The position numbers and the translations under genes are program-made. Positions 1,097 through 55,415 of a stretch of DNA of 64,000 nt are shown here, one piece after another. A model generated the notes under the pieces. The model saw only the letters and a program-made list of their open reading frames with translations. It was not told the origin of the DNA and searched no databases. Each line of letters starts with the position of its first letter. Positions within the stretch are counted from its first letter, which is position 1. This DNA is from a virus: positions 1 through 64,000 of the IMG/VR virus record IMGVR_UViG_3300003267_000287, one strand, 5' to 3'.

Positions 1097-1105
1097 GGAC
1101 TTCCG

Positions 1106-6979: not shown

Positions 6980-9153
6980 TGACCTCGATTACTCACGCCC
7001 ACGTCGCCACTGGGACCGATGCCGGGACCGGCGAGGTTCACAAGGCCGAGTGGAACGCCGATCACACGATCACTGGCTCGCTGCTTGGCACCGGTGGGCT
7101 AGTGCTCCTCGAACAGCACACCGCGTCCAGCTCGGCGACGCTCGACTTCGCCTCGTTCATCTCGTCCGACTACGACGACTACCTCATCGAAATGGTGAAC
7201 ATGCTCCCGGCCACCGACAACGTGACCCCGCAGCTCCGGGTCGGGACGGGTGGCGGGCCGACCTACGACTCGGGCGCGAACTACACCTGGATGATCGTCA
7301 ACCGCCCTGCTGGAGCGGTGGGCGGTAACGGATCGAGCGGCCAAACCTCGATCGCGCTGTTCGACTCGGGCGTCTCGAACTCCGAGCCCTCGTCGTGGAG
7401 CCTGCGCCTGTTCAACCCGCAGTCGACGACCGCGAACAAGCAGTTCAGTGGGACGGGCCTCGTGAACTACTTCAGCGGCCCAACGCCATTCGTGAGCCTC
7501 AACGGCGGGGTATACGTCAGCCACACCGCGGTCACGGCCCTGCGCTTCCTGTACAGCAGCGGCAACATCGCGTCGGGAACGATCCGGATCTACGGTGTCG
7601 CGAAGACGGGCGGGGTCGGGGCCTTTGGCGGCCAGGACCTCGATGTCTCGCCGAACCCGACATCCGACGATCACGAGTTCAAGAGCACCCTCTCGGGCTG
7701 GACGACGATCGGGACGCTGAACACGTCGAACGCGAACGCGACCGGCTACAAGAGCCACCTGCACATCGCGAACACCGCGACCGGAACCTTCCAGCTCCAC
7801 GGTCTGGTCCGGACGATGCCGTCGATGCCGTACACGGTGACGGCCAAGTTCAGCGATTACCACGTCAACGCGAACTACCAGCACTACGGCCTGTGCCTCT
7901 CGGACGGCACGAAGTTCATGACGTTCGGACCGCTCTGGCAGAGCTCGAACGGCATCCCCGAGATGTTCGCCTCGAACTGGTCGACCCGGACTTCGCGGTC
8001 GTCGTTCACCGAGTACGGCGAGATCAACCGGCGGGTGAAGAAGTACATCCGGATGACGGTGAACTCGTCGACCAGCGTCGACCTGTACTTCTCGCAGGAC
8101 GGGCTGATCTGGACGCAAGTCGCGAGTGGCTGGAACCCGAGCATGACCCCGACCCAGTTCGGCGTGATCATGACCGGCAACGACAACAGCGTCTCGGTCG
8201 ACCTGGCCGTCGACTGGATCAGGTTCGGCTCCGACGTCATCCAGCCCGAGTCGCTCCTCTGGCAGAACGTCGGCGGCCCGACGTCGACGATGTCCGTGCG
8301 CCTGAACTACGGCAACTCGTCGACCCCGTCCGACGTCTCCGCTGGGGCCATCACGGCGAATACGTGGCTCGACCTGTGCTCGAACCAGTCGTTCTCGATC
8401 ACCGACTCGTCCTCGATCGTCGAGCTCGCGCTCGAATCGATGATGCAGATCAAGCACAACACCGGCGGTGACAAGACGTACGAGGCACGCCTGCTCGTCG
8501 ACGGCTCGCTCGATTACCACTTCGGTGGTGACGTCCGTCAGGACACGTCCCAGTACCACGGGTTCGAGCCGAGCGGCTCGGTCAAGCTCACCGGGCTGTC
8601 GGCCGGAACGCACACCGTCAAGGCCCAGATCAAGCTGAGCTCCGCGGGCGACTACTACCTGCGCCCGTCGGCGTCTGGCGGCTTCGAATACCTGCGCATC
8701 CAGGTCACCGAGTACGCCCCGGTGGCGACTCCCCTGACGCTCGCGTCGGCCAAGTCGATGGTCTCAGCAGGGGATTACTCGATCTCGTCGACGACGTTCG
8801 CGAACGTCGACAACACGAACCTGTCCCACACCATCACGACCGGAGGGCACCGGGTCCTCGTGACCTTCACCGGCATGGTGACTCCGCCTGGGGCCAATGA
8901 CGGCCTCGCCCTCGACGTCTCGGTCGACGGTGTCCGTCAGGCATCCGCGGCGACGTTCGGGATCGTCTACGTGTACGCGGCGCTGGGTGCGATCTCCAGC
9001 AACATTAGCTTCACGTACATGACCGATGTTCTCTCTCCTGGGTCGCACACGATCGCCCTGATGGCGCGTTCGATCGCAGGTGGGGCAAACATCCTGCGTG
9101 CCAGCACCGGGCAGACGGTCGCAGCCTTCTCGGTCGCCGAGCTCGCGACCTAG
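6976..9153 (+). CDS. minor tail / receptor-binding protein, multi beta-sandwich
   Basis: 725 aa Ser/Thr/Gly-rich; lectin-like segment (YFSQDGLIWTQV...VDWIRF). Confidence 0.7.
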   Translation: MMTSITHAHVATGTDAGTGEVHKAEWNADHTITGSLLGTGGLVLLEQHTASSSATLDFASFISSDYDDYLIEMVNMLPATDNVTPQLRVGTGGGPTYDSGANYTWMIVNRPAGAVGGNGSSGQTSIALFDSGVSNSEPSSWSLRLFNPQSTTANKQFSGTGLVNYFSGPTPFVSLNGGVYVSHTAVTALRFLYSSGNIASGTIRIYGVAKTGGVGAFGGQDLDVSPNPTSDDHEFKSTLSGWTTIGTLNTSNANATGYKSHLHIANTATGTFQLHGLVRTMPSMPYTVTAKFSDYHVNANYQHYGLCLSDGTKFMTFGPLWQSSNGIPEMFASNWSTRTSRSSFTEYGEINRRVKKYIRMTVNSSTSVDLYFSQDGLIWTQVASGWNPSMTPTQFGVIMTGNDNSVSVDLAVDWIRFGSDVIQPESLLWQNVGGPTSTMSVRLNYGNSSTPSDVSAGAITANTWLDLCSNQSFSITDSSSIVELALESMMQIKHNTGGDKTYEARLLVDGSLDYHFGGDVRQDTSQYHGFEPSGSVKLTGLSAGTHTVKAQIKLSSAGDYYLRPSASGGFEYLRIQVTEYAPVATPLTLASAKSMVSAGDYSISSTTFANVDNTNLSHTITTGGHRVLVTFTGMVTPPGANDGLALDVSVDGVRQASAATFGIVYVYAALGAISSNISFTYMTDVLSPGSHTIALMARSIAGGANILRASTGQTVAAFSVAELAT

Positions 9154-20529: not shown

Positions 20530-20606
20530 TGGAGGCGACGGCGGGATTCGAACCCGCGAGTAGAGGTTTTGCAGACCTCCGTGTTGAACCGCTTCACCAC
20601 GTCGCC
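20530..20606 (-). tRNA. tRNA-Cys(GCA)
   Basis: GGCGACG/CGTCGCC acceptor, loop CTGCAAA, TTCGAAT, encoded CCA. Confidence 0.93.
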
Positions 20607-26971: not shown

Positions 26972-27457
26972 TCAGCTCCTGCTTGCCCAGCGCCTCGCGG
27001 GTGGTGTGACCTCATCCCCATGTGAAATCAGCCAGCGCGCAACGAGTCTGGACTCCAGCGTCATCTTTCGGGTAAACCGGACGTGAAAGATCTCTAGGGC
27101 CGTCCGCGAAGCCCAGCTGTTCTCGGCGTAGATCTGCATGGCTCGACTCAGTGAGTCGAAATGGAGGATCCGGTCTCGAGCGACGAGTCGCAGGAAGTTC
27201 CGGAGTCCGTGACGAGTCACGCGCCGGGGTGTCCAGTGGACGGTGCCCCGAGCGACGACTCCCTTCTCGTGCTCCTCAATCCCGTAGCCGCAACCCTCCT
27301 CGGGGCCCGGGCAGAACCGGGCCCCAATGGCGGCGGCAACGTCGGCGTAGGACCGCACGTAGCCTCCATGGATGAGCCAGTACTGACGGATCTGTGTCAG
27401 CCAGTCCTGACGGTGATCAACGAGACGGAGTCCGGGTGAACGGAGCATGTCCGACAC
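26972..27457 (-). CDS. hypothetical protein
   Basis: 161 aa in operon. Confidence 0.6.
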   Translation of the reverse strand: MSDMLRSPGLRLVDHRQDWLTQIRQYWLIHGGYVRSYADVAAAIGARFCPGPEEGCGYGIEEHEKGVVARGTVHWTPRRVTRHGLRNFLRLVARDRILHFDSLSRAMQIYAENSWASRTALEIFHVRFTRKMTLESRLVARWLISHGDEVTPPARRWASRS

Positions 27458-27923
27458 TCGTCGCCATCTCAGTCAGTTCCTTGGACGGGACAATCAGCCC
27501 GTTCTGTAGGAACGAATAGGTAGTAGCCCCCTCGGCCACGATCAGGCTGTCCTCGAAGAACAGTCCGGCGGCGTTCGCCGCGTCCATGACCTTGTGGACC
27601 ATGTCCACGTCGTACATCGTTGGCTGGGCATCACCCGACGGGTGGTTGTGGGCGATCTGGAAACGATCAGCTCCTGACAACAGGACCGCAGTCAACAGCG
27701 CAGGGATCGGAACCGCTACCTCGTGGTAGCCACCGACGGCGACCTCGGTCACCGTTCGGATTTGCTCGATCCCGTCATAGGCAACGGCCCACAGCCGTTC
27801 CTGGTTGGAGTCGGTCAGGCCCCACTCTCGGAAGAGACAGTCAAGATCCGCAGCAGTGGGCATCTCCTTCTCGATGCGCAATTGCACGCTGGCAAAGCGA
27901 TCGACGTTCATCGCAATCTCCAT
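27417..27923 (-). CDS. RadC-like JAB domain protein
   Basis: QERLW; IAHNHPSGDAQPTMYD; FEDSLIV. Confidence 0.85.
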   Translation of the reverse strand: MEIAMNVDRFASVQLRIEKEMPTAADLDCLFREWGLTDSNQERLWAVAYDGIEQIRTVTEVAVGGYHEVAVPIPALLTAVLLSGADRFQIAHNHPSGDAQPTMYDVDMVHKVMDAANAAGLFFEDSLIVAEGATTYSFLQNGLIVPSKELTEMATSVGHAPFTRTPSR

Positions 27924-31436: not shown

Positions 31437-32573
31437 TCAGTCGAGCCACTTGATGTCAGGGACGTCGAACGCGTCGGGCACGACCGGACGCGCCTCGGGC
31501 AGCTCGTCGTCGGCGGGCATGTTCTCGAGTTCGGCGATCGCCTCGTCACCGACGAACAGCGAGCCGATGTCGACCGGCGTGTCCTCGGCGTCGGCATCGA
31601 CGACCCCGCCGTGCTGGGCGGCGAACGCCTTGCTGAGCGCCTCCATCGCTGCGTCGAGGCTGCCGTCACCGGAGCCGGACACGATGAAGCCGCCCGCTCG
31701 CTCGTCGGTGCCGGGCATCGCCTCGATCTCGACGTCGTCGACCAGGCTGCGGATCGACCGCATCAGCTCCTGGATCTCGGGCGGGACTGAGTCCAGCATC
31801 TCCTCGAGATCCTGCTTCCTGCGCTCGGCGTCCATCCGATCGAGGATCGTGTCGAGCTCACGCTTGACGGCAATCGCTCGTCGGGTGAGTTCGAGGCCCG
31901 CCCCGAGCTCGTCGGGATTCGTCGGATCGAACTCGTTGCGCTGACGGATCAGCTCGATGTACTCCGCCCGCAGCTCGTGGGCTCGGGCGCCATCCTCGGT
32001 GTCCGTCGGGACGCGCAGTCGGATCCACGCCCGCTCCTCCGCGGCCTCCAGGATCTCCGGGTGACCGTGGATCGGAACGGCCATCCGATCGTCGTCGTCG
32101 ACCGGCTGACTGGCGTGGCGGTTGACCGCGGCGAATCCGCCGAACCGGCGGTTGTCGTCGAGCGGGTCGCCTTCCCACGTCGCGAAGTCGATCTCGGCGA
32201 GCATCCGGGCGACCATGTGGTCCTTCTCGCTGGCCTGCCAGAAGCCCTCGGGATGCTTGTGCATCACGAGATAGGCGTCGGCGCCGTGCTCATCGAGTCG
32301 CAGGCCGAGCATCGCGAGCTGGTAGATGTACTCGGTGCCGATCTCGGAGACGCCGTCGAGGAAGATCTCCTGGCCGACCCGGGCGACGGCATAGTCGACG
32401 ACTCGCAGCGTCCAGCCGCCATCCTCGTCGTGTGCGACGTCTTTGACCCAGATGACGACGTCGACCTCCTCGTCCTCGGGGAACTCGTCGAACACCTCCT
32501 CGTAGAGGGCGTCGATCAACTCCTTGGGATGGTTGGTCCTCATGTCGACCTCCATCCCGATCAAGCTGCCCAT
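31437..32573 (-). CDS. JAB/MPN+ (JAMM) motif protein with acidic helical C-terminus
   Basis: HKHPEGFWQASEKD = H-x-H-x7-S-x2-D after hydrophobic strand AYLVM. Confidence 0.65.
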   Translation of the reverse strand: MGSLIGMEVDMRTNHPKELIDALYEEVFDEFPEDEEVDVVIWVKDVAHDEDGGWTLRVVDYAVARVGQEIFLDGVSEIGTEYIYQLAMLGLRLDEHGADAYLVMHKHPEGFWQASEKDHMVARMLAEIDFATWEGDPLDDNRRFGGFAAVNRHASQPVDDDDRMAVPIHGHPEILEAAEERAWIRLRVPTDTEDGARAHELRAEYIELIRQRNEFDPTNPDELGAGLELTRRAIAVKRELDTILDRMDAERRKQDLEEMLDSVPPEIQELMRSIRSLVDDVEIEAMPGTDERAGGFIVSGSGDGSLDAAMEALSKAFAAQHGGVVDADAEDTPVDIGSLFVGDEAIAELENMPADDELPEARPVVPDAFDVPDIKWLD

Positions 32574-35100: not shown

Positions 35101-36711
35101 TCAGTCGAGCTTGGCCTGCGACTGACTGTCCTCCCGGCCACGCCGGGACTTCTCGTTGCCGCTGGTCGACGGGAGATCGGCGGCACCGGTCTCGGCCAGT
35201 GCCTGGCTGTTCCACGCGACGCTGTCCGGATTGTGCGGGCTGGGCTGGTAGGCCGCGGGCTGGATCGGGAACGCAGCCACGGTCGGGACCGCGCCCAGCT
35301 CGGCCGCCTTGACGATCGCGGTGCTGATCGTGTCGGCCGCCTTGACCGTCTCGGACCGCCGATCCTCGGGCTTCGGGGTCAGAAGGGCAACGTGGTCCTC
35401 CATCTCCTGGACCGTGGCCAGCAGGGCGTCGTCGGTCACCTCCAGCTGCCCCTCGGGCGGGGTCATGCTGATGGCGTACAGCTTGGACCGCTCGACGATC
35501 TCCCGGATCACGGCCGGGATCTTCCCGGCGAGGTGCTCCTTCGACTTCGTGAGCGGGTTGTCGGCAGCGATCAGGCCCCGACCGTACTGGCGGGCGAGGA
35601 TCGCGGCCGCCTCGGCATCGGGCGGCGGGATGTGGATGATCGCGTCGAGACGACCGGGCCGCAGCAGGGCGGTCGTGATCTTCTCGAGCTCGTTCGTCGT
35701 GAGCACGATCATCAGCGCCGTGCCCTTCGACTCCACGCCGTCGATGACGTTCAGGACGTCGTCGATCTCGGTCGTCCGGTTGTCACCCCGCATGATCCGG
35801 TCGATGTCCTCGCAGAAGAGGACGACGCCGTGGTTGCGGTCGCCGTACTGGCGAGCCAGCCGGACGACCTCGGCGAGCTCGGTGATGTCCTTCGCCTCGA
35901 CGTACGTCCAGCCGTGGCGGACGGCGAGGTTCGCCGTCTTGGTGGCGATCATCGTCTTGCCGGTGCCGAACGGACCGGCGAGGAGGACGCCGCGCTTGAG
36001 CGGGATGCCGTGGGCGACGACCCGATCGGTCTGCTCGATCGGGGTGAAGATGTTGGTCTGGACCGAGACGGCGGTGCGCTCGGGCAACACCAGCTCGTTG
36101 ACCACCGACGGATCGAGATCGAGGAACTCGGGCTCGGGCATCGGCAGCCGGTTGCCGTGGTTGTCGAAGAGCTTGACCCGGAACGCGGTGTTCCGGTAGA
36201 TCGAGCGCTCCCGGACGTGCTTCTTGACCAGCTCGACGATCTCGTTGACGACGGGCTCGTAGAGCCGCTTCACCTTGCCGGTGAGCTGGAACACGATCCG
36301 TCCGTCGTCCTTCTCGGTCACGCCGGACTGGAGGTAGCCGTCGCCGATGTTGGGCAGGGCGAACCGGCCCCACGGGACCTGCACGGTCTTGCCGAGGGCG
36401 ATCGGCACCGACAGCATCGCGGGCGGCTTCGGGCCGAAGAAGCCCGGCGTCGGGACGCTGTTCGCCCAGCCGTACTTCTCGGTCAGCACCTGGTTCAGGG
36501 CGTAGGCCGCCTCGAACACGAACGGCGCCTCGATCTCAGCGACCGGCACGAACTCCTGGTTCTCGTACTCGAGTCGCGCGTGGATGACCTTGTCGACCTG
36601 CTCGAGGTTCATGGTCTCGGGGATGATGATCGCTTCCCCGTGCTTGCGAACCTCGACGACGTCACGAATGGCCTTCTTGGCCTGACCCATCTGGTCGAGC
36701 GTCTGTCCCAT
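35101..36711 (-). CDS. classical-clade AAA ATPase
   Basis: RGVLLAGPFGTGKT, VLFCEDID, TTN...ALLRPGRLD. Confidence 0.92.
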   Translation of the reverse strand: MGQTLDQMGQAKKAIRDVVEVRKHGEAIIIPETMNLEQVDKVIHARLEYENQEFVPVAEIEAPFVFEAAYALNQVLTEKYGWANSVPTPGFFGPKPPAMLSVPIALGKTVQVPWGRFALPNIGDGYLQSGVTEKDDGRIVFQLTGKVKRLYEPVVNEIVELVKKHVRERSIYRNTAFRVKLFDNHGNRLPMPEPEFLDLDPSVVNELVLPERTAVSVQTNIFTPIEQTDRVVAHGIPLKRGVLLAGPFGTGKTMIATKTANLAVRHGWTYVEAKDITELAEVVRLARQYGDRNHGVVLFCEDIDRIMRGDNRTTEIDDVLNVIDGVESKGTALMIVLTTNELEKITTALLRPGRLDAIIHIPPPDAEAAAILARQYGRGLIAADNPLTKSKEHLAGKIPAVIREIVERSKLYAISMTPPEGQLEVTDDALLATVQEMEDHVALLTPKPEDRRSETVKAADTISTAIVKAAELGAVPTVAAFPIQPAAYQPSPHNPDSVAWNSQALAETGAADLPSTSGNEKSRRGREDSQSQAKLD

Positions 36712-44727: not shown

Positions 44728-45212
44728 GAACCCGACTTTCCCAGCGGCCGCACGAGTTCGCCGGTGATCCGGGTGGCACATGCGCCTGGGTCACTCGCGA
44801 GTCGTGGGGTCCCGGCGATAAGCACGAGCAGGAGCACTGCGGGCTACTCGAGGACGATCCTGTCCATGCCGGTGACCCGCTGGCTGTCGCGCCGAACGAC
44901 TTCGCCTGTCGGTGCTCCGACAAGGGCAAGGAACGGATCGCCCGGATCCGAGCTTGGGCCGAGGAGCGGGAACGCGTGCCGGTGACGGACCCGTTGTTCC
45001 TGACCCGCCTGATCCACGACCTGAACTGGAACTACCGCGTCTCGATCGAGGGGATCCCGACCGACATGTGGTCGGCGATCATCGCGGAGGGCCCAGAGGA
45101 GTTCAAGACGTGGATGCAGTGCGACGAGATCCTCGACGGCCTGATCTTCGTCCTCCGAGCGGCGTATGATCAGTTCGGGGATAAATACAAAGAGGCCGAA
45201 GGGCTTGACTAA
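44724..45212 (+). CDS. hypothetical protein
   Basis: 162 aa, GTGA coupling. Confidence 0.65.
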   Translation: MRTRLSQRPHEFAGDPGGTCAWVTRESWGPGDKHEQEHCGLLEDDPVHAGDPLAVAPNDFACRCSDKGKERIARIRAWAEERERVPVTDPLFLTRLIHDLNWNYRVSIEGIPTDMWSAIIAEGPEEFKTWMQCDEILDGLIFVLRAAYDQFGDKYKEAEGLD

Positions 45213-45233
45213 CTTGCAAGATTGGGGTACAGT
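45205..45233 (+). promoter_or_regulatory. sigma70-type promoter
   Basis: TTGACT-17-TACAGT in AT-rich patch. Confidence 0.7.
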
Positions 45234-45261
45234 AAAGGAAACACGCAAGAGGAAGACTTCC

Positions 45262-45507
45262 ATGAAGTTTCGAGTTGTTCCGGCCGACATGCGGAACGAG
45301 GTCATCGCGCCCCCGCGCAGCACCCGTTCCCCGTGGGTCGCTGCCCTGATTGATGGGCAGACCATCGTCATCTCCAAGGAGGACCGCCGGAAGATCGGCG
45401 GCAACACCAAGACGCTCCGGAACCACGGGCTCCGTCTCCGTTCGGGCAGGATCTCGGAAAGCGAGGTCGTCGTCTGGGCTGAGCCTCTCGAGCCGGAGAG
45501 CAAGTGA
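45262..45507 (+). CDS. hypothetical protein
   Basis: AGAGG SD. Confidence 0.65.
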   Translation: MKFRVVPADMRNEVIAPPRSTRSPWVAALIDGQTIVISKEDRRKIGGNTKTLRNHGLRLRSGRISESEVVVWAEPLEPESK

Positions 45508-45962
45508 TGGCTGAGGAGCCGTACGAGTGGGGCGCCGAGATCGTCGGCAAGGGTCGCCCCACCGACGACGGCCCCAGCCAGATCGAACTGAGCCACGATC
45601 GCGTGGCCTGCGCCCGTCACAACGAACCCTTCCGCGATGACTGGCCCAACGGCTACGGGGTCTTCGCGACCGAGCTCGCCACCGAGGTCCTCAACGATGA
45701 GGAGTTCATCGAGGCCGTCGATGGCGAGGTCGAGCAGATCGAGGCGGCGCTCGACGAGAAGCCGCTCTGCGAGCGAGTCAGCAAGACAACGCTGATCTAC
45801 ATCTACACCAAGACCGAGATCGGCAGCCTTGACCGCTGCGCGATGTGTCGCGAGGTTCGCCTGGGCACGCCGTACACGATGCGGATCAGCCCGAGCGACA
45901 CCCGGCGCGTCCCGCATCTGTGCTTCACCTGCATCGTCTACAACCTCCGCGGCGCGAACTAA
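45504..45962 (+). CDS. Cys-containing hypothetical protein
   Basis: CARH, CAMC, CFTC. Confidence 0.7.
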   Translation: MMAEEPYEWGAEIVGKGRPTDDGPSQIELSHDRVACARHNEPFRDDWPNGYGVFATELATEVLNDEEFIEAVDGEVEQIEAALDEKPLCERVSKTTLIYIYTKTEIGSLDRCAMCREVRLGTPYTMRISPSDTRRVPHLCFTCIVYNLRGAN

Positions 45963-46045
45963 CCTTCGTGGGCCACTTGTGCCCTACGTGAGGACGTGTT
46001 ACGGTCGTCGAGTCTGACGCAGCTGGCCCCACCGGGGCGTTCGCC

Positions 46046-46405
46046 ATGAAGTACGTCTACTCCGAGGGGGTGATCGCCCGATCCAGGAGGAACCCCAAGG
46101 TCCAGAGCGGTGAACTGCCGCTCATCACCCCCACGATCACCAGGGAAGAGTGGATCCCCTGGCGATACTGGCTCTACCGAATCGCGAGAGCCTACTTCCA
46201 CACGGTCATGCGATGGGTACCACCGTTGCGTGGCTGGATCGACCGCCGTTGGTGTACCGGTCTCGAGATCGCCCTGTATCGGCCGAACGACCATACGACG
46301 ATCCCCATCGACCCCACGTTCATCCGCCCGGACCGCCGGGCTCGTTACGAGGAGTGGCTCCGTGACCGAGAAGCACGTTCTCCGGATCCTGGACCGAACG
46401 GGTGA
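46046..46405 (+). CDS. hypothetical protein
   Basis: 119 aa Trp/Arg-rich. Confidence 0.55.
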   Translation: MKYVYSEGVIARSRRNPKVQSGELPLITPTITREEWIPWRYWLYRIARAYFHTVMRWVPPLRGWIDRRWCTGLEIALYRPNDHTTIPIDPTFIRPDRRARYEEWLRDREARSPDPGPNG

Positions 46406-46595
46406 CACCGCTGTCGCCTGGACCCCCGGGACCAAGACCGAAGAGGACGAGGCTGAAAAGAAGTTCGACGAGATGGCGAAGCAGGGCTACCTGATGTTCG
46501 CCGTCGAAGCCCCGGGCAAGACCCCCGAGCAGGTCCGCAAGTTCGATCCGAAGGCATTCGAGATCGTCGCGGTCCCGCAGTTCCGTGGTGGCTGA
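46362..46595 (+). CDS. 77-aa putative ubiquitin-like (beta-grasp) protein ending RGG
   Basis: GAGGAG SD + GTG; ends EIVAVPQFRGG. Confidence 0.55.
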   Translation: MTEKHVLRILDRTGDTAVAWTPGTKTEEDEAEKKFDEMAKQGYLMFAVEAPGKTPEQVRKFDPKAFEIVAVPQFRGG

Positions 46596-47409
46596 TCGCC
46601 TCCGGAAGGCACTCGGGCTCAAGACCGTGGAGGAGAAGTTCGAAGAAGCTCTCCAGGAGACCCAGCGGCAGGTCGAAGCGCTGGAAACGGCGCTTCGAGA
46701 AGCCGAGCTGATCCTCGCCCGCGCCCTGGGAGAAACCACGGACGACCGCGAGGATTCCTTCTACGGAGCCGATCGCTGGGAGCGGGCCCGGCTCCGCGCT
46801 CGGACGAAGAAGAACGAGCTTGCCAATCTTCGGGCCGAGAAGCTGCTCCGTGATCACCTGACCGAGGGTCAGGTCGCGGAGTGGAACCGGAATCGGCGGA
46901 TCGCCGTGAAGGGCAAGACCATGCTCTACACGATCAAGGAGAACGGCCAGGTCTTCGCCAATCGGAAGTTCCTCTGCACCTACCCGACGGTCGCGATCCC
47001 TCCGGCCGACCAAGTCCTCGCCACCAAGCTCCTGATCGAAGGCAACGAAGAGGAGTTCCTCGAGAACGCCAACCCCGACAGCTCGTACAGCAAGCGATTG
47101 ACCGTCGACGGCGAGCTCGTGCGTCGTGAGTACAAATTCCGCGATTCCACCTTGCTGTTCAACCCCAACGGCTACTTCACCCCGGACATGTACCGCCAGT
47201 ACGCCAACGATCTGCGCCAGATCTATGGCGTGGGCACCGCCACCACCAACACCACCATCAACACCACCACGACCACCACCCCGGGGACTGGCACGCTCTT
47301 CGCCACCAACGCCCAGATGACGGGTCTCCGACCCTACCTAGCGCCGACCGTCCGGACCAACGCGACCACCACCGAGATCGAGTTCACTGCCCGATACGAA
47401 GAAACCTAG
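46585..47409 (+). CDS. hypothetical partner protein with single Cys
   Basis: 274 aa; FLCTYP...DQVLATKLLIEGNEEEFLENAN; Thr-rich tail. Confidence 0.7.
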   Translation: MVADRLRKALGLKTVEEKFEEALQETQRQVEALETALREAELILARALGETTDDREDSFYGADRWERARLRARTKKNELANLRAEKLLRDHLTEGQVAEWNRNRRIAVKGKTMLYTIKENGQVFANRKFLCTYPTVAIPPADQVLATKLLIEGNEEEFLENANPDSSYSKRLTVDGELVRREYKFRDSTLLFNPNGYFTPDMYRQYANDLRQIYGVGTATTNTTINTTTTTTPGTGTLFATNAQMTGLRPYLAPTVRTNATTTEIEFTARYEET

Positions 47410-47410
47410 C

Positions 47411-47438
47411 TTGACAGGTGTTCCACACCTGGTACCAT
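47411..47438 (+). promoter_or_regulatory. promoter of tRNA cluster
   Basis: TTGACA-16-TACCAT with CAGGTG..CACCTG palindrome. Confidence 0.7.
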
Positions 47439-47644
47439 CGGAGCGCGGCCGGTCGTAGTCGCGTTGGGAAGCACCCCCCGGGCCTCCCAGCGAGGGGCAC
47501 GCGCGCTCTCTTGGACTCCCGGCCGCACTTCCTAGAGGATCTTCCGATGAAGAAGGAGCAACAGATGTTCAAGCGATAGGACGGCCCGCACGACAGGCCG
47601 TCTGAAGATGACGGCCCGGAGCCGTCCCGCGAAGGGACATCTGA

Positions 47645-47803
47645 TTGGCGAAGAAGCCCCGCTCGCCGTACGTTGACGAGCTGCGGGACAAGAACAACAT
47701 CAGCATCGAAAACCACATCGAGATGACCAATCGGCTGGTCAAGGCCGGTCACCAGGGGATTCACAATCGCCCGGGCCCGCCGAAGCCGAAGAAGTCGGGG
47801 TAG
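47645..47803 (+). CDS. 52-aa basic ORF ending within tRNA-Val
   Basis: TTG start, MAKKPRSPYVDELRDKNNISIENHIEM... Confidence 0.4.
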   Translation: MAKKPRSPYVDELRDKNNISIENHIEMTNRLVKAGHQGIHNRPGPPKPKKSG

Positions 47804-47868
47804 CTCAGCGGAAGAGCATCTGGTCGACATCCAGAAGGTCCCAGGTTCAATCCCTGGTCCCGACACCA
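47794..47868 (+). tRNA. tRNA-Val(GAC)
   Basis: cloverleaf; anticodon loop TCGACAT; CCA. Confidence 0.85.
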
Positions 47869-47871
47869 TCT

Positions 47872-47947
47872 GCCGAAGTAGCTCAGCTGGTAGAGCATCG
47901 CTTTCGTAAAGCGGCGGTCGTCGGTTCGAGTCCGACCTTCGGCTCCA
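47872..47947 (+). tRNA. tRNA-Thr(CGT)
   Basis: loop TTCGTAA; CCA. Confidence 0.92.
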
Positions 47948-47949
47948 AG

Positions 47950-48023
47950 TGGGGAGTGGCCAAGAGGTACGGCGCCACGCTTTGGACGTGGGATCGAAGG
48001 TTCGAGTCCTTCCTCCCCAGCCA
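47950..48023 (+). tRNA. tRNA-Gln(TTG)
   Basis: loop CTTTGGA; U1-A72; CCA. Confidence 0.92.
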
Positions 48024-48133
48024 CATTAGAACCGGACGGACAAGGCTTTGGCAGGTGATCACCGAGTGGGACGTGACCATGAACACGGGCAGCTCGGGCC
48101 TAGTCCTGGTGGGTAGCGAGTGGTCCGGATCAT

Positions 48134-48212
48134 CGCAGCGTAGAGGAGTCTGGTTGTCCTCGTCGGGCTCATAACCCGAAGATCGCGGGTTCGAATCCCG
48201 CCGCTGCAACCA
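48134..48212 (+). tRNA. initiator tRNA-fMet(CAT)
   Basis: C1:A72 mismatch, GGG/CCC anticodon stem, loop CTCATAA. Confidence 0.92.
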
Positions 48213-48214
48213 AC

Positions 48215-48290
48215 CCGCCCGTGGCTCAGTGGATAGAGCATCGGGTTCCGGACCCGAAGATCGCAGGTTCGAGTCCTGTCGGGCGGGCCA
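48215..48290 (+). tRNA. tRNA-Arg(CCG)
   Basis: loop TTCCGGA; CCA. Confidence 0.92.
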
Positions 48291-48291
48291 A

Positions 48292-48366
48292 GGGCCGGTA
48301 GCTCAACGGTAGAGCAAGGGTCTCTTAAACCCTAGGTTGAGGGTTCGAGCCCCTCCCGGCTCACCA
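48292..48366 (+). tRNA. tRNA-Lys(CTT)
   Basis: loop CTCTTAA; CCA. Confidence 0.92.
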
Positions 48367-48446
48367 CATACCCTCCGCATCGGGCCTGATCGGAGGTACG
48401 AGACGGTGGTACTTCTTGCGAGGATGTGCCACCGTCTCGGCTCGTT

Positions 48447-48522
48447 CGGGGTGTAGCTCAGCTGGAAGAGCGTCTGCTTTGGGAGCAGAAGGTCGCCGGT
48501 TCGAACCCGGCTTCCCCGACCA
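48447..48522 (+). tRNA. tRNA-Pro(TGG)
   Basis: loop TTTGGGA; CCA. Confidence 0.9.
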
Positions 48523-48530
48523 ACATCTTC

Positions 48531-48579
48531 CGAAAAACCCCCTGTTGCGGACCCGGGAGGCCGCTTCAGGGGGTTTTCG
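48531..48579. terminator. terminator after tRNA cluster (possibly bidirectional)
   Basis: AAAAACCCCCTG...CAGGGGGTTTT. Confidence 0.75.
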
Positions 48580-48590
48580 CACGCTAGCAC

Positions 48591-48619
48591 TTCCACTGGT
48601 TGACTGCAAGTGGTACCAT
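48591..48619 (+). promoter_or_regulatory. putative promoter
   Basis: TTCCAC-17-TACCAT with TG extension. Confidence 0.5.
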
Positions 48620-48722
48620 GATGTTCGTCATGTGGCCGTCCCCCCGGGCGTGTGACATGGGGAGTTCGTCTGGAGGGTCCGGTTCAGGCAGGGGCCGGAC
48701 CCTTCAGTCTGTCAAGGAGAGA

Positions 48723-49662
48723 GATGGACAAGACCGCGAAGCCGCCGATCACCAACGTTGGCCCAGATCGTCAGGCCGATGCCAAGCAGCTCACTCGGGA
48801 GCACGCCGAGAAGACCGCCAAGTGGATCAAGGGAACGGTTCAGCCCACTGAGAAGAAGTAATGGGCGTTTCGCTGTTCTCCGCCCCGGTCTCGGGAACAG
48901 CGGACGATCTTCCGGTCTTGATCCTCGGGATCGAGAGCGGGGTCGATCAGAACGGCACCACATCGTCGTGGTTCTCGAACGCGCTCTGCGTGAACGACGA
49001 AGGGCGACTCAAGTTCGTCCGGATGACCCAGATCCAATTGGATTGGCGCTATGACTGGAGGACCCACAGCTGGATCGACACCGGAGACATGAATGGCGAC
49101 ACGCAAGACCCTTCCACTGATGGGAGTCCGGGTGTTCCGGGACTCCTTTCCCAATCTGACCGAGTCGGTCCGAGTGATCCGTTCGACCCGGAAGGGCGAG
49201 AAGCCCCAGGAGATCTTGGGGGTCTGGACACCCGAGAAGAAGGCCCAGGAGAAGACCGCTGATGTCTGAAGATGGCGAAGTCGTCGCGTCCTTCCTCGTT
49301 CGAGTCAACCTCCGCGCCCAGCCCGGCAAGTCGGTCAAGATCCCGACCAACGCCCGCCTCGAGGACCTGATCAAGCAGGCGGTCGAGGACGAGAGTCTCG
49401 AGGGCGGGATGGGCGACTACACGATCAGCGCCTCGGTCAGCTCGGAGCGCCTCGACAAGTGACCGATCGGAAGGTCGTCGTCGGCCGGATCGAGCAGCTC
49501 GAGGGCCGACGGGTTCTCATGCCACTCGACAAGAAGGTTGAGGTAACGAACTACCAGAAGAAGGTCGCTGCCCTGATTGCCGCGGCGTACGTGTACAAGG
49601 CCGAGCACACGGTGGCATCAATTGAGCGCCTGAAGCGGTGCGCCGAGGATCTTCCAGACTGA
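48723..49662 (+). other. four coupled small hypothetical ORFs (48723-48861, 48861-49262, 49262-49462, 49459-49662)
   Basis: overlapping stop/start codons, SD sites. Confidence 0.6.
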
Positions 49663-49802: not shown

Positions 49803-49823
49803 GGTGTGTCTGGAGGGTCTATC

Positions 49824-50186
49824 GTGCGACACGCCACCACAGTCCGGACGGCATTCGAGGCCGGACACTCGGTGGACGGACATTCGATGTGCGGGTGGGT
49901 GGGACATGGTCATCACTGGGAAGTCGAGGTCACCGTTGCGGGGGGCTTGGATCCCAAGAAGGTCTTGGTGGTGGACCACGGCGAGCTTGCCGAAGCGGTC
50001 CGCCGAATCGGTCAGGAACTTGATGGCCACAGCCTCAACGACATGCTCCCCGGAGTCGTCTCCACGCCCGAAGGCGTGGGACTCTATTTCAAGGAACGAC
50101 TAATCCTCGACTGGCCGCTCATCAGCGCGATCCGCGTCGCGATGACGCCGAACATCAACGTCACGATCACGATGGAGACCAGATGA
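49824..50186 (+). CDS. queD: QueD / PTPS-like protein
   Basis: FEAGH...C...HGHHWEVEVTV...LDGHSLND...TPE. Confidence 0.8.
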   Translation: MRHATTVRTAFEAGHSVDGHSMCGWVGHGHHWEVEVTVAGGLDPKKVLVVDHGELAEAVRRIGQELDGHSLNDMLPGVVSTPEGVGLYFKERLILDWPLISAIRVAMTPNINVTITMETR

Positions 50187-50398
50187 GCGTCGTCTTCACC
50201 TGTGAATGCGGTCGGCGGACCACCGAGCCGTACATCATCAGGAACGTGAAGATGTGCGTGATCTGTGCGGACGAGATCCGCCCGGAGGTTGTCGACAGCC
50301 GCGAGCGCTACTACCAGAAGCGCTACGGCACCCAGCTCAAGCACTCGCCGGGTTTCGAGGGAGCGAGCTTTGACCACGGCAAGCGCACTAGTCGTTGA
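50183..50398 (+). CDS. small zinc-finger protein
   Basis: CECG...CVIC. Confidence 0.6.
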   Translation: MSVVFTCECGRRTTEPYIIRNVKMCVICADEIRPEVVDSRERYYQKRYGTQLKHSPGFEGASFDHGKRTSR

Positions 50399-51017
50399 GC
50401 CGATCTGGCTGTCGCCAGCGGTCATCAGTCCGAACCCGTGGAACCCGAACGTCATGGATCCCGACATGCTCGAGTACGCCCGAGCGTCGATCCAGAAGTT
50501 TGGCTTCGTCGATCCGGTCACCTGCCGCCATCTGGGCGAGGACCTCTACCAGATCATCGACGGCGAACACCGCTGGCGGATCGCCCAGGAGATGGGGCTC
50601 GAGCTCATCCCGGTGATGAACCTCGGGCCGCTCGCCGACTCGATCGCACAGCAGCTGACCATCGTCCTCAACGAGACTCGAGGGCAGGCCAATCCGGAGA
50701 AGCTGGGCCGCCTTCTCCGGGATCTGATGGCCGTCGAGACCAAGGAGTCCTTGCTCTCGACCCTGCCGTACACGCGAGAGGCGCTCGACCGGCTGACGGG
50801 TCTTCCGTCCATGACGTGGGAGGGGTTGGACCGCCCCCAGCGACCCACTCTTCCGGCCGAGCGCCCCTCCGCGTGGGTCGAGCGGACCTACCGAATGCCA
50901 AAGGAGTCGGCCGCCGTGATTGATCAGGCAATCGCCAAGGTCCGCGATGAGGAGCCCCAGGACGTGTCGGACTGGCAGGCGCTCGAGCTCATCGCGGCGG
51001 ACTTCCTCGGAGGCTGA
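50370..51017 (+). CDS. ParB N-terminal domain protein
   Basis: PNPWNPN, SIQKFGFVDP, IIDGEHRW. Confidence 0.88.
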   Translation: MTTASALVVEPIWLSPAVISPNPWNPNVMDPDMLEYARASIQKFGFVDPVTCRHLGEDLYQIIDGEHRWRIAQEMGLELIPVMNLGPLADSIAQQLTIVLNETRGQANPEKLGRLLRDLMAVETKESLLSTLPYTREALDRLTGLPSMTWEGLDRPQRPTLPAERPSAWVERTYRMPKESAAVIDQAIAKVRDEEPQDVSDWQALELIAADFLGG

Positions 51018-51475: not shown

Positions 51476-52015
51476 GTGACCGTCCGCAAGCACGACTACC
51501 GCAACCTGGAACGCGAGTACATCACGACCGATATCAGCATCCGGGCCCTCTGCCGCAAGCATGGAATCAAGGGCTACAGCTCGGTCGCCCAGTTCGCTCG
51601 GGAGAACGGCTGGGAGGAGAAGCGAGCCCGGATCCAGGGCCGCGCCCAGGACAAGCTGACGGAACGGGTCTCGGACCAGATCGCGGAGGCTGAAGCCTCG
51701 CTCATCGAGACCGTTCGCTCGGAGTGGATCACGGTCATCCGGGCCGCGACCTACAAGTTCGCCGAGGATCTGAAGGACCCGTCCTATCGGATCCGCGTCG
51801 ACGACCTCATCCGCCTGATCGAGAAGGGCCTGGTCCTCCTCGGTGAACCGAGCGATCGGACAGAGGAGCGCCATCTTGCACTCACCGGAACCCTCGAGGG
51901 ACTGGGACCCGACTTCTTCCGACGACTGGCTGAAAGCACTCGACCCGTCAAGTCTGTCGGACCAGGATCGGGAGATCCTCCACAGCTGGGCGCTGAGAAG
52001 CCTCGCCCGAACTGA
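51476..52015 (+). CDS. terminase small subunit (probable)
   Basis: N-terminal HTH (EYIT...SIRALCRKHG...W), directly upstream of TerL. Confidence 0.7.
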   Translation: MTVRKHDYRNLEREYITTDISIRALCRKHGIKGYSSVAQFARENGWEEKRARIQGRAQDKLTERVSDQIAEAEASLIETVRSEWITVIRAATYKFAEDLKDPSYRIRVDDLIRLIEKGLVLLGEPSDRTEERHLALTGTLEGLGPDFFRRLAESTRPVKSVGPGSGDPPQLGAEKPRPN

Positions 52016-53342
52016 CGTCTTCGCGTTCGGCGAGTACGTCTTCGGCTACGACGCCGCGGCCCACCATCGCGAGATGGTCGACGCGATCAACGCCGCCATC
52101 TCGACGCGGACCAACACGGTCATCCTCGAGCCCCGCGGTGGCGCGAAGACGACCTGGGGCAACACGATCAACCTCACCAAGCTGATCGCCGACAACCCCG
52201 ACATCCGGATCGGCCTGGTCTCGAACACCGCCAAGCAGGCCAACGACTTCAGCCGGGCGATCCGCTGGACGCTCGAGTCGAACCCGAAGATGCACGAGGT
52301 CTACGGCAACCTCGTGTCGACCTCGAAGTGGACCGACGTCGAGTGGCTCCGGGCTGAGAGCCGCTGGCACGGCTCCAAGGACGTCACGCTGTACGCGGCG
52401 GGCGCAGGCGGCGCGATCATCTCGAAGCGATTCGACGTGATCCTGTGCGACGACATTCTCGACGAGGAGAACTGCGCCAACATTGAGCAGCGCGAGAAGA
52501 TCGAGAACTGGTTCTTCAAGACGCTGATCCCGTGTCTCGTCCCAGATGGTGTGGTGATTGTTCTCGGCACCCGCTGGGCCGAAGAGGATCTGTACGAACG
52601 CCTGTCGACCCCGGTCGATCGCGGCGGCAAGGGCTGGCAGCTCCTGACCCGCAAGGCGCTCATCGAGCACCCCGACGGCGAGCTCGAGAGCTACTGGCCC
52701 GAGCACTGGCCGGTCGAGACGCTGCTCCAGAAGAAGATCGAGCTCGGGACGGCGCTCTTCTCGTGCGCCTACCAGAACGACATCTCGGGCCTGATGGCCG
52801 GGAACGTCTTCCGCAAGGAGTACTTCCAGTACTTCGACATGCTCGATCCGGACAAGAACTACACGATCCGGATGGGCGTCGACCTCGCCTCCTCAGAGAA
52901 GGAGCGGGCGGACTACACCGCGCGGGTCACGACGGCTGAGGACGACGAGGGCAACTTCTACGTCCTATCGGTCGCGCGCGACAAGCGCGAGACGCACCAC
53001 GCCGAGTTCGTGAACGACGGCTTCATGGCCTATCCGAACATGAACCTGGTGATCTGCGAGAGCCAGCAGTTCCAGTCGACCCTGATCCAGGAGGTCATGC
53101 GGGACTACCCGCGGATCCCGATCGAGGGCAAGAAGTCGGACGTCGACAAGGTGACCCGGGCCCGGGCCGTCGCCGCCAAGTTCGAGGGCCACAAGATCTT
53201 CCTCCGCCGAACCCTCAAGGACTCCGACTTCGAGCGGGAGCTGCTGAGCTTCCCCAAGGGCCACGACGACATGGTCGACGCCCTCGGCTTCTCGATGGAC
53301 CTTGGAGGCGGCGGCTTCATCTTCGGGAGCCTCCGCCGATGA
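51876..53342 (+). CDS. terL: terminase large subunit
   Basis: PRGGAKT, ILCDD, GTRW, GVDLA...DYTA, HDDMVDA; TTG start with GAGGAG SD. Confidence 0.93.
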   Translation: MHSPEPSRDWDPTSSDDWLKALDPSSLSDQDREILHSWALRSLARTDVFAFGEYVFGYDAAAHHREMVDAINAAISTRTNTVILEPRGGAKTTWGNTINLTKLIADNPDIRIGLVSNTAKQANDFSRAIRWTLESNPKMHEVYGNLVSTSKWTDVEWLRAESRWHGSKDVTLYAAGAGGAIISKRFDVILCDDILDEENCANIEQREKIENWFFKTLIPCLVPDGVVIVLGTRWAEEDLYERLSTPVDRGGKGWQLLTRKALIEHPDGELESYWPEHWPVETLLQKKIELGTALFSCAYQNDISGLMAGNVFRKEYFQYFDMLDPDKNYTIRMGVDLASSEKERADYTARVTTAEDDEGNFYVLSVARDKRETHHAEFVNDGFMAYPNMNLVICESQQFQSTLIQEVMRDYPRIPIEGKKSDVDKVTRARAVAAKFEGHKIFLRRTLKDSDFERELLSFPKGHDDMVDALGFSMDLGGGGFIFGSLRR

Positions 53343-53887: not shown

Positions 53888-54081
53888 GCGAGGTCGTCTT
53901 CCGCGACGGGAAGCGTGAGGTCCCGAACCATCTGGCTGCGTTGATGAGCGAGCTCGACACCTACAAGCTGACCTACGAGGAGGCGGTCGCCGCCGCCAAC
54001 AAGAAGCTCGTGTCGGATCACCTGGACAAGACGTTCGGGAAGATCGTCTCCCAGCACTTCGAGAACTGGCGGAGCCGATGA
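53884..54081 (+). CDS. small hypothetical protein
   Basis: ATGA coupling on both sides. Confidence 0.65.
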   Translation: MSEVVFRDGKREVPNHLAALMSELDTYKLTYEEAVAAANKKLVSDHLDKTFGKIVSQHFENWRSR

Positions 54082-55415
54082 GTTGGATTGGCGAAGTCTG
54101 GAAGGCGGCGACCCGTCAGTCCAGTCCGAAGAACGTCCCGGCCTCGTCCGCGCTCGTCATGCAGGAGCGTGGCCGGGTCGCCAAAGCGAACGTCCAGCTC
54201 TTCCGTCACTGGGCTGAGCATTCGGAGTGGATCCGAGCGGCGATCAACGTCCGCAAGAACCAGGTCAGCTCGGCCGAGTGGGACATTGTCCCGTTCGATC
54301 CCCAGAAGCCGTACAGCGAAACGCTCAAGAACCAGATCAAGCAGATCTTCGACCGTCCCAACCCGTCAGCCGACAGCTTCCGCTCGTTCGTCGAGCCGGT
54401 TCTCGAAGACGTCCTGGTGCTCGATGCGGGCGTGGTCGAGAAGGTCAAGACGCTCCGCGGACAGGTCGCCCAGCTGTGGCCGGTCGATGGCGGGAAGATC
54501 CGCGTCAACTCGCTCTGGGACGGCGGAGAGGAGCCCCGGTACTACTGGTATCCGGACGGCTTCCTCCGGGCGGCGTTCAAGAACGAGGACATGCTCTACG
54601 TGATGGCCAACCCGGCGACGTACCGGGTGGTTGGCCTCGCTCCGCTCGAGACCCTGAAGCTGACCGTTGACGCGGAGCTGTCGGGGCATTCATACAACCA
54701 CCGTCAGGTCGTGAACGCGGCCCCGGATGGAATGCTCGATCTCGGCGAGGGGGCTCGTCCGGAGCAGGTCGAGCAGTTCAAGTCCTATTGGTTCAACGAG
54801 GTCGCAGGCAAAGGCGCGATGGCCTTTGTCGGCGGAACGAAGAACGCCAAGTTCATCCCGTTCCGCAGCTCGAACCGGGACATGCAGTTCCTCGAGTGGC
54901 AGCAGTACCTCGTTCGCAAGATCTGCGCGGTGTTCGGTCTCTCCCCCCAGGACCTCGGTCTGAGCTTTGATGTCAACCGAGCCAACGGCGAGGTTCTCCA
55001 GGAGAACACCGACGACCGCGGTATCCGACCCCTGATGGGCCTCCTCCAGGACTATTTCACGCGGGAAATCGTCTGGGACGAGGGCTTCGGCGGATCGGAC
55101 AACAACCTTGCCTTCCGGTTCACGCGCCTCAACCTGCGCGACTCGTTGGCTCAAGCCCAGGTCCAGAAGATCCAGCTCGCGGGTCTTCCGACACGCTCGA
55201 TCAACGAAGTCCGCAAGGAGCAGGGCCTCGAGCCGTGGGGTCCCGAGTTCGACATCCCGATGGTCGTGACCCCGACCGGCGCCGTCCGGCTCGACAAGGT
55301 TCCGACCGCGCAGGACGTCGTTGATGCAAAGCAGAAGCCGCCCGCCGGTTCGACAGGAGCGCCCGCTGAGGGACGAGCTTCCTCCGGGTCGAGCAGCAAG
55401 GGCATCGAGGAGTAA
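54078..55415 (+). CDS. portal protein (HK97 family)
   Basis: GLAPLE, DMQFLE...ICAVFGLSPQDLG, SINEVRKEQGLEP. Confidence 0.93.
   Translation: MSWIGEVWKAATRQSSPKNVPASSALVMQERGRVAKANVQLFRHWAEHSEWIRAAINVRKNQVSSAEWDIVPFDPQKPYSETLKNQIKQIFDRPNPSADSFRSFVEPVLEDVLVLDAGVVEKVKTLRGQVAQLWPVDGGKIRVNSLWDGGEEPRYYWYPDGFLRAAFKNEDMLYVMANPATYRVVGLAPLETLKLTVDAELSGHSYNHRQVVNAAPDGMLDLGEGARPEQVEQFKSYWFNEVAGKGAMAFVGGTKNAKFIPFRSSNRDMQFLEWQQYLVRKICAVFGLSPQDLGLSFDVNRANGEVLQENTDDRGIRPLMGLLQDYFTREIVWDEGFGGSDNNLAFRFTRLNLRDSLAQAQVQKIQLAGLPTRSINEVRKEQGLEPWGPEFDIPMVVTPTGAVRLDKVPTAQDVVDAKQKPPAGSTGAPAEGRASSGSSSKGIEE

Follow-up and report, generated by a model that had tools for sequence, protein, structure and literature searches.

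The question raised by positions 46362-47409 of the viral record IMGVR_UViG_3300003267_000287 is whether two overlapping open reading frames (ORFs) found there, a short one whose product ends in two glycines (ORF A) and a longer one whose product has a single cysteine (ORF B), work together as a ubiquitin-like protein (Ubl) and a carrier for it. The record is 72,154 bp long and rated complete by CheckV, and the stretch analysed here, called the window, is its first 64 kb, with a guanine plus cytosine (GC) content of 64.6%. An earlier note made from the window had described a 77-residue ORF ending in FRGG that overlaps a 274-residue ORF with its only cysteine in FLCTYP, and had suggested that the two may act as a conjugation pair or decoy; the coordinates were confirmed (Table 1). 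As set out below, the two genes belong to a cassette that recurs in dozens of unrelated contigs, with a C-terminal glycine conserved in one product and a cysteine in the other. Our tentative reading, to which we give slightly less than an even chance, is that this two-gene cassette encodes a beta-grasp-like Ubl and an E2-like carrier, and operates as a thioester relay through the E2-like cysteine with the activating enzyme (E1) provided in trans.

The start of ORF A is shared by homologues that begin at the same residue (MTE-KHVLRIL), and its GC content by codon position (0.65/0.41/0.83) is typical of a coding gene in a window of this composition. A word-indexed search recovered 26 relatives of 73-118 residues, every one of which ends exactly in GG, and a pattern scan revealed 11 more distant viral loci (33-45% identity, contig GC content 0.39-0.68), where GG directly precedes the stop codon in 11 of 11. 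A wider profile search, word-limited and counted in clusters at 90% identity, brought the number to 183 proteins; among the 120 matches listed, 45 end in GG, 68 in AG and seven in GG followed by 1-10 further residues (GGSR, GGW, GGMR, GGVR, GGSC, GGCAE and GGRCASDVRTRL), the last resembling, by analogy, Ubl precursors. The AG-tailed relatives form a large clade with the end PPIRAG. When 31 diverse relatives were aligned, only G14, F35 and the last glycine were invariant. The conserved terminal GG anticipated by the earlier note is hence upheld for its last residue, while the penultimate one is either G or A.

The glycine codons of ORF A do lie beneath the first codons of ORF B, as had been cautioned beforehand, and the doublet could in principle be a by-product of nucleotide constraint, imposed by a Shine-Dalgarno sequence or by the overlap with the next start, with the pair amounting to plain translational coupling. 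Such an origin would also suit several loci in which GGAGG-like glycine codons stand 5-8 nucleotides before the partner start. However, all four glycine codons are in use at both terminal positions across 30 loci, and GG is retained inside an in-frame fusion of the two genes as well as ahead of the 1-10-residue extensions. Furthermore, two loci (L010 and L011) have the partner gene upstream and a convergent terminase-like gene 3' of the Ubl gene, and GG is still kept before the stop codon, which argues that the terminal glycine is selected in the protein and not as a ribosome-binding site. Gene linkage, conservation of the partner cysteine and the predicted complex are in addition independent of these codons. 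As a mere ribosome-binding site the doublet is largely refuted by codon use, the L010/L011 arrangement, the fusion and the extensions, and we consider nucleotide constraint hardly credible as its explanation, whereas the terminal glycine of the family is, to judge from the aligned sequences, under protein-level selection.

With ORF B as a single query only ORF B itself was matched, because the copy in the window is divergent. Relatives became apparent through the Ubl loci, as a module of about 100 residues in the gene adjoining the Ubl (L001, L002, L003, L004, L005/6, L007 and L009) aligns with residues 74-169 of ORF B including the cysteine, and the same module is found in the gene directly upstream of the Ubl in L010/L011. 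A seven-module partner profile, run against 1.84 billion cluster representatives, matched 9491 of them at E<=0.001 and 5796 at E<=1e-10, the typical partner protein having about 200 residues with the module at its C-terminus. Within the best 150 of the 9491 matches the cysteine is present in 150 of 150, and the invariant residues are this cysteine, a histidine two residues later, an asparagine, an aspartate and a glutamine. Across 58 distinct locus sequences the cysteine occupies the aligned column in 56, and the other two carry Y-C a few residues upstream.

The remainder of the partner protein varies. Most partner N-termini (P0028-P0177; also L001 5422-5670 and L063 348-700) are rich in Thr, Ser, Asn and Gly and nearly free of lysine (K 0.6%), and contain 2-4 copies of the motif [VTI]-W-x-x-W-N spaced 16-29 residues apart; at least one copy is present in 119 and at least two copies in 105 of 150 partners, 60 of which begin with Met-Pro. 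ORF B is without this N-terminal region and has its Thr-rich part at the C-terminus instead; in typical relatives it is the N-terminus that is Thr/Ser-rich, with W-x-x-W repeats. The Thr/Ser-rich region of the partners might be a sticky disordered region or an acceptor of the tag.

Linkage of the two genes was followed from both sides. Starting from the Ubl, the partner adjoins it in every locus with readable flanks, the contig of L008 ending too early. Starting from the partner, the Ubl gene lies directly upstream in 26 of 28 viral loci, the two misses being L015, whose contig is truncated, and L022, which represents a second copy of the partner within a contig of 436 kb. The same holds for 31 of 34 loci in metagenome-assembled bacterial genomes, mostly labelled Burkholderiales, and each of the three misses there has less than 330 nucleotides of upstream sequence. 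In two jumbo-phage contigs of 435 kb and 231 kb (L029 and L033) Ubl and partner are fused in frame (...PPMQGG-LMVM..., stop-to-stop ORF 469-3282). An all-against-all comparison of the flanks of 57 distinct locus groups revealed no further conserved neighbour, and the unit is thus an autonomous two-gene cassette. The adjacency of the two genes, recurring in dozens of unrelated contigs, is more than chance, and both the partner cysteine and the gene linkage, on which the earlier note had let its proposal depend, are conserved in the relatives.

Some further observations concern the way in which the two genes are joined and co-vary. The possibility that A and B are joined through programmed frameshifting or readthrough was considered and rejected, since the frame of the A stop relative to the B start varies among loci. 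The fused partner of L029/L033 reads C-I-Y-P, to be compared with C-T-Y-P in the window. In one clade (L065, L067, L072, L075 and L077) an AG tail goes together with replacement by alanine of the partner aspartate in P-x-x-D-x-M-L in 5 of 5 loci, and the likewise AG-tailed L014/L021, L024 and L028 retain the aspartate; this co-variation is probably a single lineage event, and could mark a contact of the tail. As to deposited phages, positions 45000-49000 of the window gave no match by megablast, the canonical partner module gave none by tblastn, and ORF A by tblastn found one record only, the metagenome-derived KX853510.1. This 197-kb genome (Virus Rctr197k, L040) has one Ubl and two partner paralogues (3324-3578 and 4815-7986), annotated as hypothetical, with an annotated clustered regularly interspaced short palindromic repeat (CRISPR) region and a transposase-like gene 1-3 kb upstream.

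In the relay that we tentatively favour, A and B would bind each other, the sheet of A resting with its face against the long helix of B and the tail of A following the cysteine loop of B. A MoeB/ThiF-type E1 would adenylate the terminal glycine of A, an enzyme that would come from the host in the case of this phage, which encodes none, and from the operon itself in the few relatives that carry their own. A would subsequently be handed as a thioester to the cysteine of B and from there to a target, possibly the variable Thr/Ser/Trp-rich region of B or a host or phage protein. The function of ORF A would need a free C-terminal glycine, and any extension or fusion would first need trimming off. 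The computed results are conservation, linkage of the genes, likeness of fold and the predicted complex, and from them we infer adenylation, thioester formation, the target and a biological role.

The binding step can be weighed with a model of the complex of ORF A and the ORF B module, which scored 0.82 as against 0.00 for the best control, a level that 58 of 80 solved complexes and 2 of 110 mismatched pairs attain, this score being the model's confidence and no measurement, and one that cannot show a covalent bond. Separate runs had at least 93% of contacts in common, with a predicted local distance difference test (pLDDT) of at least 87 for the partner chain. The interface comprises residues 69-78 (the cysteine loop) and helix 81-103 of B in module numbering, and residues 8, 10-15, 44-48 and 69 and the tail 71-77 of A. 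The model supports A-B binding and places the predicted glycine tail by the cysteine loop.

The limit that attaches to this score belongs with a number of results that weigh against the relay, and these are gathered in this and the following paragraphs. ORF A has no relevant match in Pfam, PHROGs, NCBIfam or PADLOC, and among Pfam models none to ThiS, MoaD or ubiquitin. Its AlphaFold2 model (mean pLDDT 87.3; strands 5-11, 14-20, 43-48, 56-58 and 67-72; helix 25-40) has the same strand-strand-helix-strand-strand-strand order as had been guessed from the sequence. Foldseek matches to it are nearly all beta-grasp domains, but weak (best E 0.013, TM-score 0.30-0.47), and the best of 48,161 chains in VIA-align, protein L, has a Z score of 5.0 (root-mean-square deviation (rmsd) 3.7, 62 residues aligned), where by the guide of the tool a Z below 8, as are all Z scores given here, may mean only a common arrangement. 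Further weak VIA rows include PB1, UBL, GB1, BubA (9eav_C, Z 4.1), MoaD (Z 3.7-3.3, among them 2q5w_D at 3.7 and 1fm0_D at 3.5), ISG15 and a chain of a bacterial E1-E2-Ubl complex (8tyz_B, Z 3.3), and the kinds of beta-grasp among all structural matches are RA/RBD, PB1, UBX, NEDD8, Ub, SUMO, protein L/G, MoaD and BubA. The order of elements and the types of match agree with the expectation of a beta-grasp fold, but the scores are weak, and ORF A reads as beta-grasp-like, short of proof.

The partner module was modelled with a pLDDT of 89.9 as helices 2-29, 33-42 and 79-100 and strands 44-48, 53-57, 62-64 and 67-70, the conserved cysteine being at the end of strand 4 (model residue 70). Its four best VIA matches are an RWD domain (2daw, Z 5.3, rmsd 5.0, 98 aligned), Ubc9 (4y1l_C, Z 4.6, rmsd 3.0, 75 aligned) and then two RWD domains, with both the GCN2 RWD (2yz0) and the RWD 2dax at Z 4.2; RWD or E2 appears in the title of 11 of the 50 matches listed, which include FANCL rows too. 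Foldseek against the PDB gave nothing below E 0.8 for this module, and its weak rows at E of about 1 are kinetochore proteins (the dwarf Ndc80 complex, the Mad1 C-terminal domain and MIND), which we take to be RWD-type folds. The Pfam models of E2, RWD, UEV and Prok-E2 matched 0 of 36 alignment members and 0 of 7 module members (E<=5 or E<=1) and none of the ten best partner profile matches, a profile search of the partner alignment against PDB sequences returned chance rows only, such as troponin I, and the partner family has no match in Pfam, PHROGs, NCBIfam or PADLOC. In addition, the conserved cysteine stands two residues before [H/Y]-P and not about eight after an HPN, with no HPN asparagine and no cysteine downstream; the histidine after the cysteine is confined to one clade and missing in many others among the 58 locus sequences; and the ORF B of the window itself is divergent, reading C-T-Y-P and having lost the conserved Arg and Gln of the clade. 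On these models the partner module is weakly RWD/E2-like. Among BFVD matches of the module, an uncharacterised 397-residue protein of the cultivated jumbo phage Atu_ph07 of Agrobacterium (A0A2L0UZL2) ranked third (TM-score 0.63, E 0.037) and was set aside, with homology unconfirmed, the hidden Markov models (HMMs) of both families having found nothing in the Atu_ph07 genome (MF403008, L097); the other matches were two unnamed viral proteins.

The same structural results would suit a pair that works without covalent chemistry, in which the module of B is an inert RWD/UEV-like Ubl binder, the cysteine is buried and structural, and the small glycine tail is kept only because a narrow groove has to accommodate it; under this view the role of the pair would be that of an adaptor, chaperone or regulator, perhaps one acting on the Thr/Ser/Trp-rich region of B. 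The best structural matches are RWD domains, that is inactive E2-fold domains, and bacterial RWD-like domains "probably bind the Ub moieties" in the words of the cited section of PMC1779556. Binding of this kind would be enough for the complex model to pass its controls, it would need neither the E1 that this phage and most relatives lack nor the histidine near the cysteine that is not universal, and the in-frame fusion of L029/L033 would work as a two-domain protein. However, a terminal glycine kept over more than 100 diverged members, with extensions beyond GG in 7 of the 120 listed, is a signature of C-terminal chemistry; the cysteine, present throughout the sequences examined, falls within the predicted tail-binding loop; and a MoeB-type E1 is present in the operon at two loci. 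Non-covalent binding is accordingly weighed as rather unlikely, and we return to the relay and the enzyme that it would require.

Counts of this enzyme also go against the relay. ThiF (PF00899) has 0 matches in the whole 72,154-bp record, so that the absence of ThiF/E1 reported for the window holds for the full genome, and the mini-E1 HMM found nothing in this phage; of ten other phage genomes with the pair, eight are without a ThiF match. The two ThiF-positive genomes carry a triad of mini-E1, JAB protein and second Ubl that forms a system separate from the pair, which in large phages consists of a JAMM/JAB protein, an 89-residue protein ending ...PKTPFG(K) and a 190-residue mini ThiF-type E1 (L041 216-2094, L042 1318-2580 and L043-L062; 20 viral contigs of 28-536 kb), usually not adjoining the pair. 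The triad was rejected as a general activating system, since the partner is found within 8 kb in only 2 of 20 triad loci. Over all pair loci the E1 HMM detected an E1 nearby in 3 of 57 locus groups (L085, L063 and L022), a rarity that tells against the relay as well, and outside the operons of L085 and L063 the adjacency could be chance. In L085 (4458-6387) a MoeB-type E1 lies directly upstream in the order E1-Ubl-partner, overlapping by 4 nucleotides a Ubl gene whose 99-residue product has an insertion, whereas L063 (348-2109), on a 5.9-kb contig in which no Ubl was seen, has the partner, a 104-residue ORF and a MoeB-type E1; the E1s of both, from metagenome-assembled-genome contigs, have C-terminal CxxC motifs. 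The second partner copy of L022 has an E1-JAB-Ubl cluster at a distance of about 1 kb. An E1 in a minority of cassettes fits an E1-dependent mechanism in which the enzyme usually acts in trans.

Since the operon E1s of L085 and L063 are of MoeB/ThiF type, a further explanation is that A is a ThiS/MoaD-like sulfur carrier, thiocarboxylated through a host MoeB/ThiF, and that the cysteine of B relays sulfur for a thio-modification, which in this phage would yield for example a modified nucleic acid or cofactor. ThiS is the nearest named family to ORF A in the ESM Atlas (score 0.76, a weak lead), MoaD chains are among its structural matches, complexes with the tail in a pocket are the rule for MoaD-MoaE and ThiS-ThiG, and the window has eight tRNA genes and a PTPS/QueD gene. 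Nevertheless, the partner is unlike MoaE, ThiG, TtuA or rhodanese and matches RWD/E2 instead, no gene for a sulfurtransferase or desulfurase recurs beside the pair in the 57 locus groups, and an enzymatic role does not account for the large and variable stretches of low complexity in the partner. ThiS and MoaD end in GG, and the AG tails of 68 among the 120 matches listed are atypical of them. Such a sulfur role thus appears improbable.

What the relay might be used for is addressed by another proposal, which concerns biological role and is compatible with a relay using E1 in trans. Here A would mimic the glycine-ended substrate of Bil, Bub or the Cap2 of type II CBASS, a defence E1 of the host would load it, and the cysteine of B would draw off the activated tag and so weaken immunity. 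Like accessory or anti-defence genes, the cassette stands on its own and occurs in genome contexts unrelated to one another, it lacks an E1 of its own, and BubA (9eav_C) and 8tyz_B are among the structural matches of ORF A listed above; host systems that conjugate glycine-ended proteins against phages exist according to the cited parts of PMC11601603 and PMC10097602. But neither protein is matched by a PADLOC model, the family is very large where Bil, Bub and type II CBASS are sparsely distributed, as far as the cited part of PMC11601603 describes, and some cassettes have a MoeB-type E1 of their own, which a pure trap would not need. We therefore hold a counter-defence trap to be distinctly improbable as the role of the pair.

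The setting of the pair in this genome is summarized in Table 1. A minus-strand recombination/replication block contains ERF, a PD-(D/E)XK nuclease, a methyltransferase, the RadC-like JAB, the AAA ATPase and a ParB-like gene, and a plus-strand block from about 43.8 kb contains small ORFs without Pfam match, ORF A and ORF B, the tRNA cluster, the 6-pyruvoyl-tetrahydropterin synthase (PTPS)/QueD gene, a ParB-like gene, terminase and portal. The overlap between ORF A and ORF B is 11 nucleotides. A strong sigma-70-like site (47411-47438; TTGACA, 16 nucleotides, TACCAT with TG) begins 2 nucleotides past the ORF B stop and precedes the cluster of seven tRNA genes. The QueD-like gene hints at a 7-deazaguanine pathway in the phage. 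A link of the pair to the two JAB genes and the AAA ATPase, as had been suggested, did not hold, since these genes are 10-19 kb away on the other strand within the recombination/replication block, and neither JAB nor AAA genes recur beside the pair across the 57 locus groups. Prok-JAB (PF14464) is absent from the genome.

Table 1. Positions of the gene pair and of other features in the window (nucleotide positions of the window; + and -, strand)
Feature	Position	Strand	Remarks
ORF A	46362-46595	+	77 residues, GTG start, ends ...PQFRGG*
Shine-Dalgarno-like GAGGAG	46349-46354	+	7 nucleotides ahead of the ORF A GTG; read from sequence
Terminal Gly-Gly codons of ORF A	46587-46592	+	GGT GGC; under the first codons of ORF B
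ORF B	46585-47409	+	274 residues; putative GTG start at 46585, the first start of the ORF
Coiled coil of ORF B		 	N-terminal, about residues 1-75
Conserved cysteine module of ORF B	46804-47091	+	residues 74-169; helix, four-strand meander, Cys-x-[H/Y]-P loop, long helix
Cys131 codon of ORF B	46975-46977	+	TGC; sole cysteine, in FLCTYP; conserved cysteine of the family
C-terminal extension of ORF B	47092-47406	+	residues 170-274, Thr-rich, e.g. TATTNTTINTTTTTTPGTGT
tRNA cluster	47794-48522		seven genes (Val, Thr, Gln, Met, Arg, Lys, Pro)
PTPS/QueD-like gene	49806-50186		6-pyruvoyl-tetrahydropterin synthase family
ParB N-terminal domain protein	50265-51017		
Terminase large subunit	51843-53342		
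Portal	54078-55415		
Eighth tRNA gene of the window	20530-20606	-	Cys
RadC-like JAB	27420-27923	-	PF04002, E 3e-17 (Pfam)
378-residue ORF	31440-32573	-	JAMM-like motif H-x-H...S-x-x-D, no Pfam match
AAA ATPase	35104-36711	-	PF00004 (Pfam)

Taken as a whole, the fold, the terminal glycines and the partner cysteine with its linkage, by any of which the earlier note would have let its idea fall, were all looked into and none overturned it, leaving it partly supported; the RWD/E2 resemblance of the partner module and a complex model that passes its controls go beyond what had been proposed. To our knowledge, ubiquitin-like conjugation in bacteria has been shown only recently, in type II CBASS, Bil and Bub, and always in a defence operon of the host that supplies its own E1. 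A phage-borne pair of tag and carrier without E1 would, if true, add a viral side to it. The pair is abundant (5796 partner representatives, 183 tag clusters) and yet absent from Pfam, PHROGs, NCBIfam and PADLOC, and no description of it was found in published full texts, a search that did not cover supplementary files. It could reveal a virus that borrows an adenylating enzyme of its host, or else a new non-covalent use of the ubiquitin and E2 folds. It is possible, though we doubt it, that this very large unnamed class of phage cassettes is as a whole a minimal tagging system for host or viral targets, in which a beta-grasp tag with a reactive glycine end and a new, miniature E2-like carrier with its cysteine at a non-classical position are charged through the housekeeping MoeB/ThiF of the host independently of Bil, Bub and CBASS.

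In relation to known systems, the TAPI protein of phages lambda and T1 is similar in being a phage-encoded, Ubl-like beta-grasp protein with a conserved C-terminal glycine, as given in the cited part of PMC1779556. TAPI belongs to a tail-assembly block, where it is flanked by a JAB/NlpC peptidase (TAPK, JAB plus NlpC/P60) and TAPJ, whereas here neither JAB nor NlpC genes adjoin the cassette, which lies outside the tail module, and the cysteine partner is the only conserved neighbour; with neighbours so different, an identity with the lambda TAPI/TAPK tail-assembly Ubl was rejected. With ThiS and MoaD the short protein shares a size of about 77 residues, a beta-grasp-like model, a terminal Gly-Gly, the MoeB-type E1 in L085 and L063 and the presence of MoaD among its matches. 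It differs from them in having no Pfam match, in the commonness of AG tails, in a partner that is no known sulfur-using synthase, in being phage-borne and in usually having no E1.

The partner module resembles eukaryotic E2, RWD and UEV domains in its predicted order, in which a helix and a meander of four strands are followed by a loop and then a long helix. RWD domains have a YPxxxP loop and E2s an HPN loop, and the [H/Y]-P-x4-P loop after strand 4 of the partner recalls both. The predicted contact with the Ubl, through the long helix and the cysteine loop, resembles the "closed" arrangement of E2~Ub. In contrast to E2 and RWD proteins, the partner has no sequence-level relation to them, its Z scores lie below 8, the HPN asparagine is missing and the cysteine position differs, and the partner joins the module to a coiled coil as well as to low-complexity Thr/Ser/Trp regions. 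Prokaryotic E2-like domains with a displaced cysteine or histidine and inactive RWD-like versions were described by Iyer et al. 2006 (PMC1779556, in the part cited).

The closest known systems are the bacterial Ubl conjugation operons, classes 6c/6d of Iyer, Burroughs and Aravind 2006, now called Bil (BilABCD) and Bub, as far as the cited parts of PMC1779556 and PMC11601603 describe them. According to the same parts, Bil and Bub are host defence operons in which an E1 is always encoded and, as a rule, also a JAB or another peptidase, whereas the cassette described here consists of two genes, is phage-borne, is without E1 in 54 of 57 locus groups and has no linked JAB. Neither ORF A nor ORF B matches the Pfam or PADLOC models of Bil or Bub, and the cysteine lies two residues before [H/Y]-P, not after an HPN-type motif. 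What is shared with Bil and Bub, again within those parts of the two papers, is the combination of a small beta-grasp Ubl having a reactive C-terminal glycine with a cysteine-bearing protein of the E2 fold, both of them predicted in the present case, and Ubl-E2 fusions occur on both sides, as BubAB in Bub (PMC11601603, in the part cited) and as the in-frame fusion of L029/L033 here.

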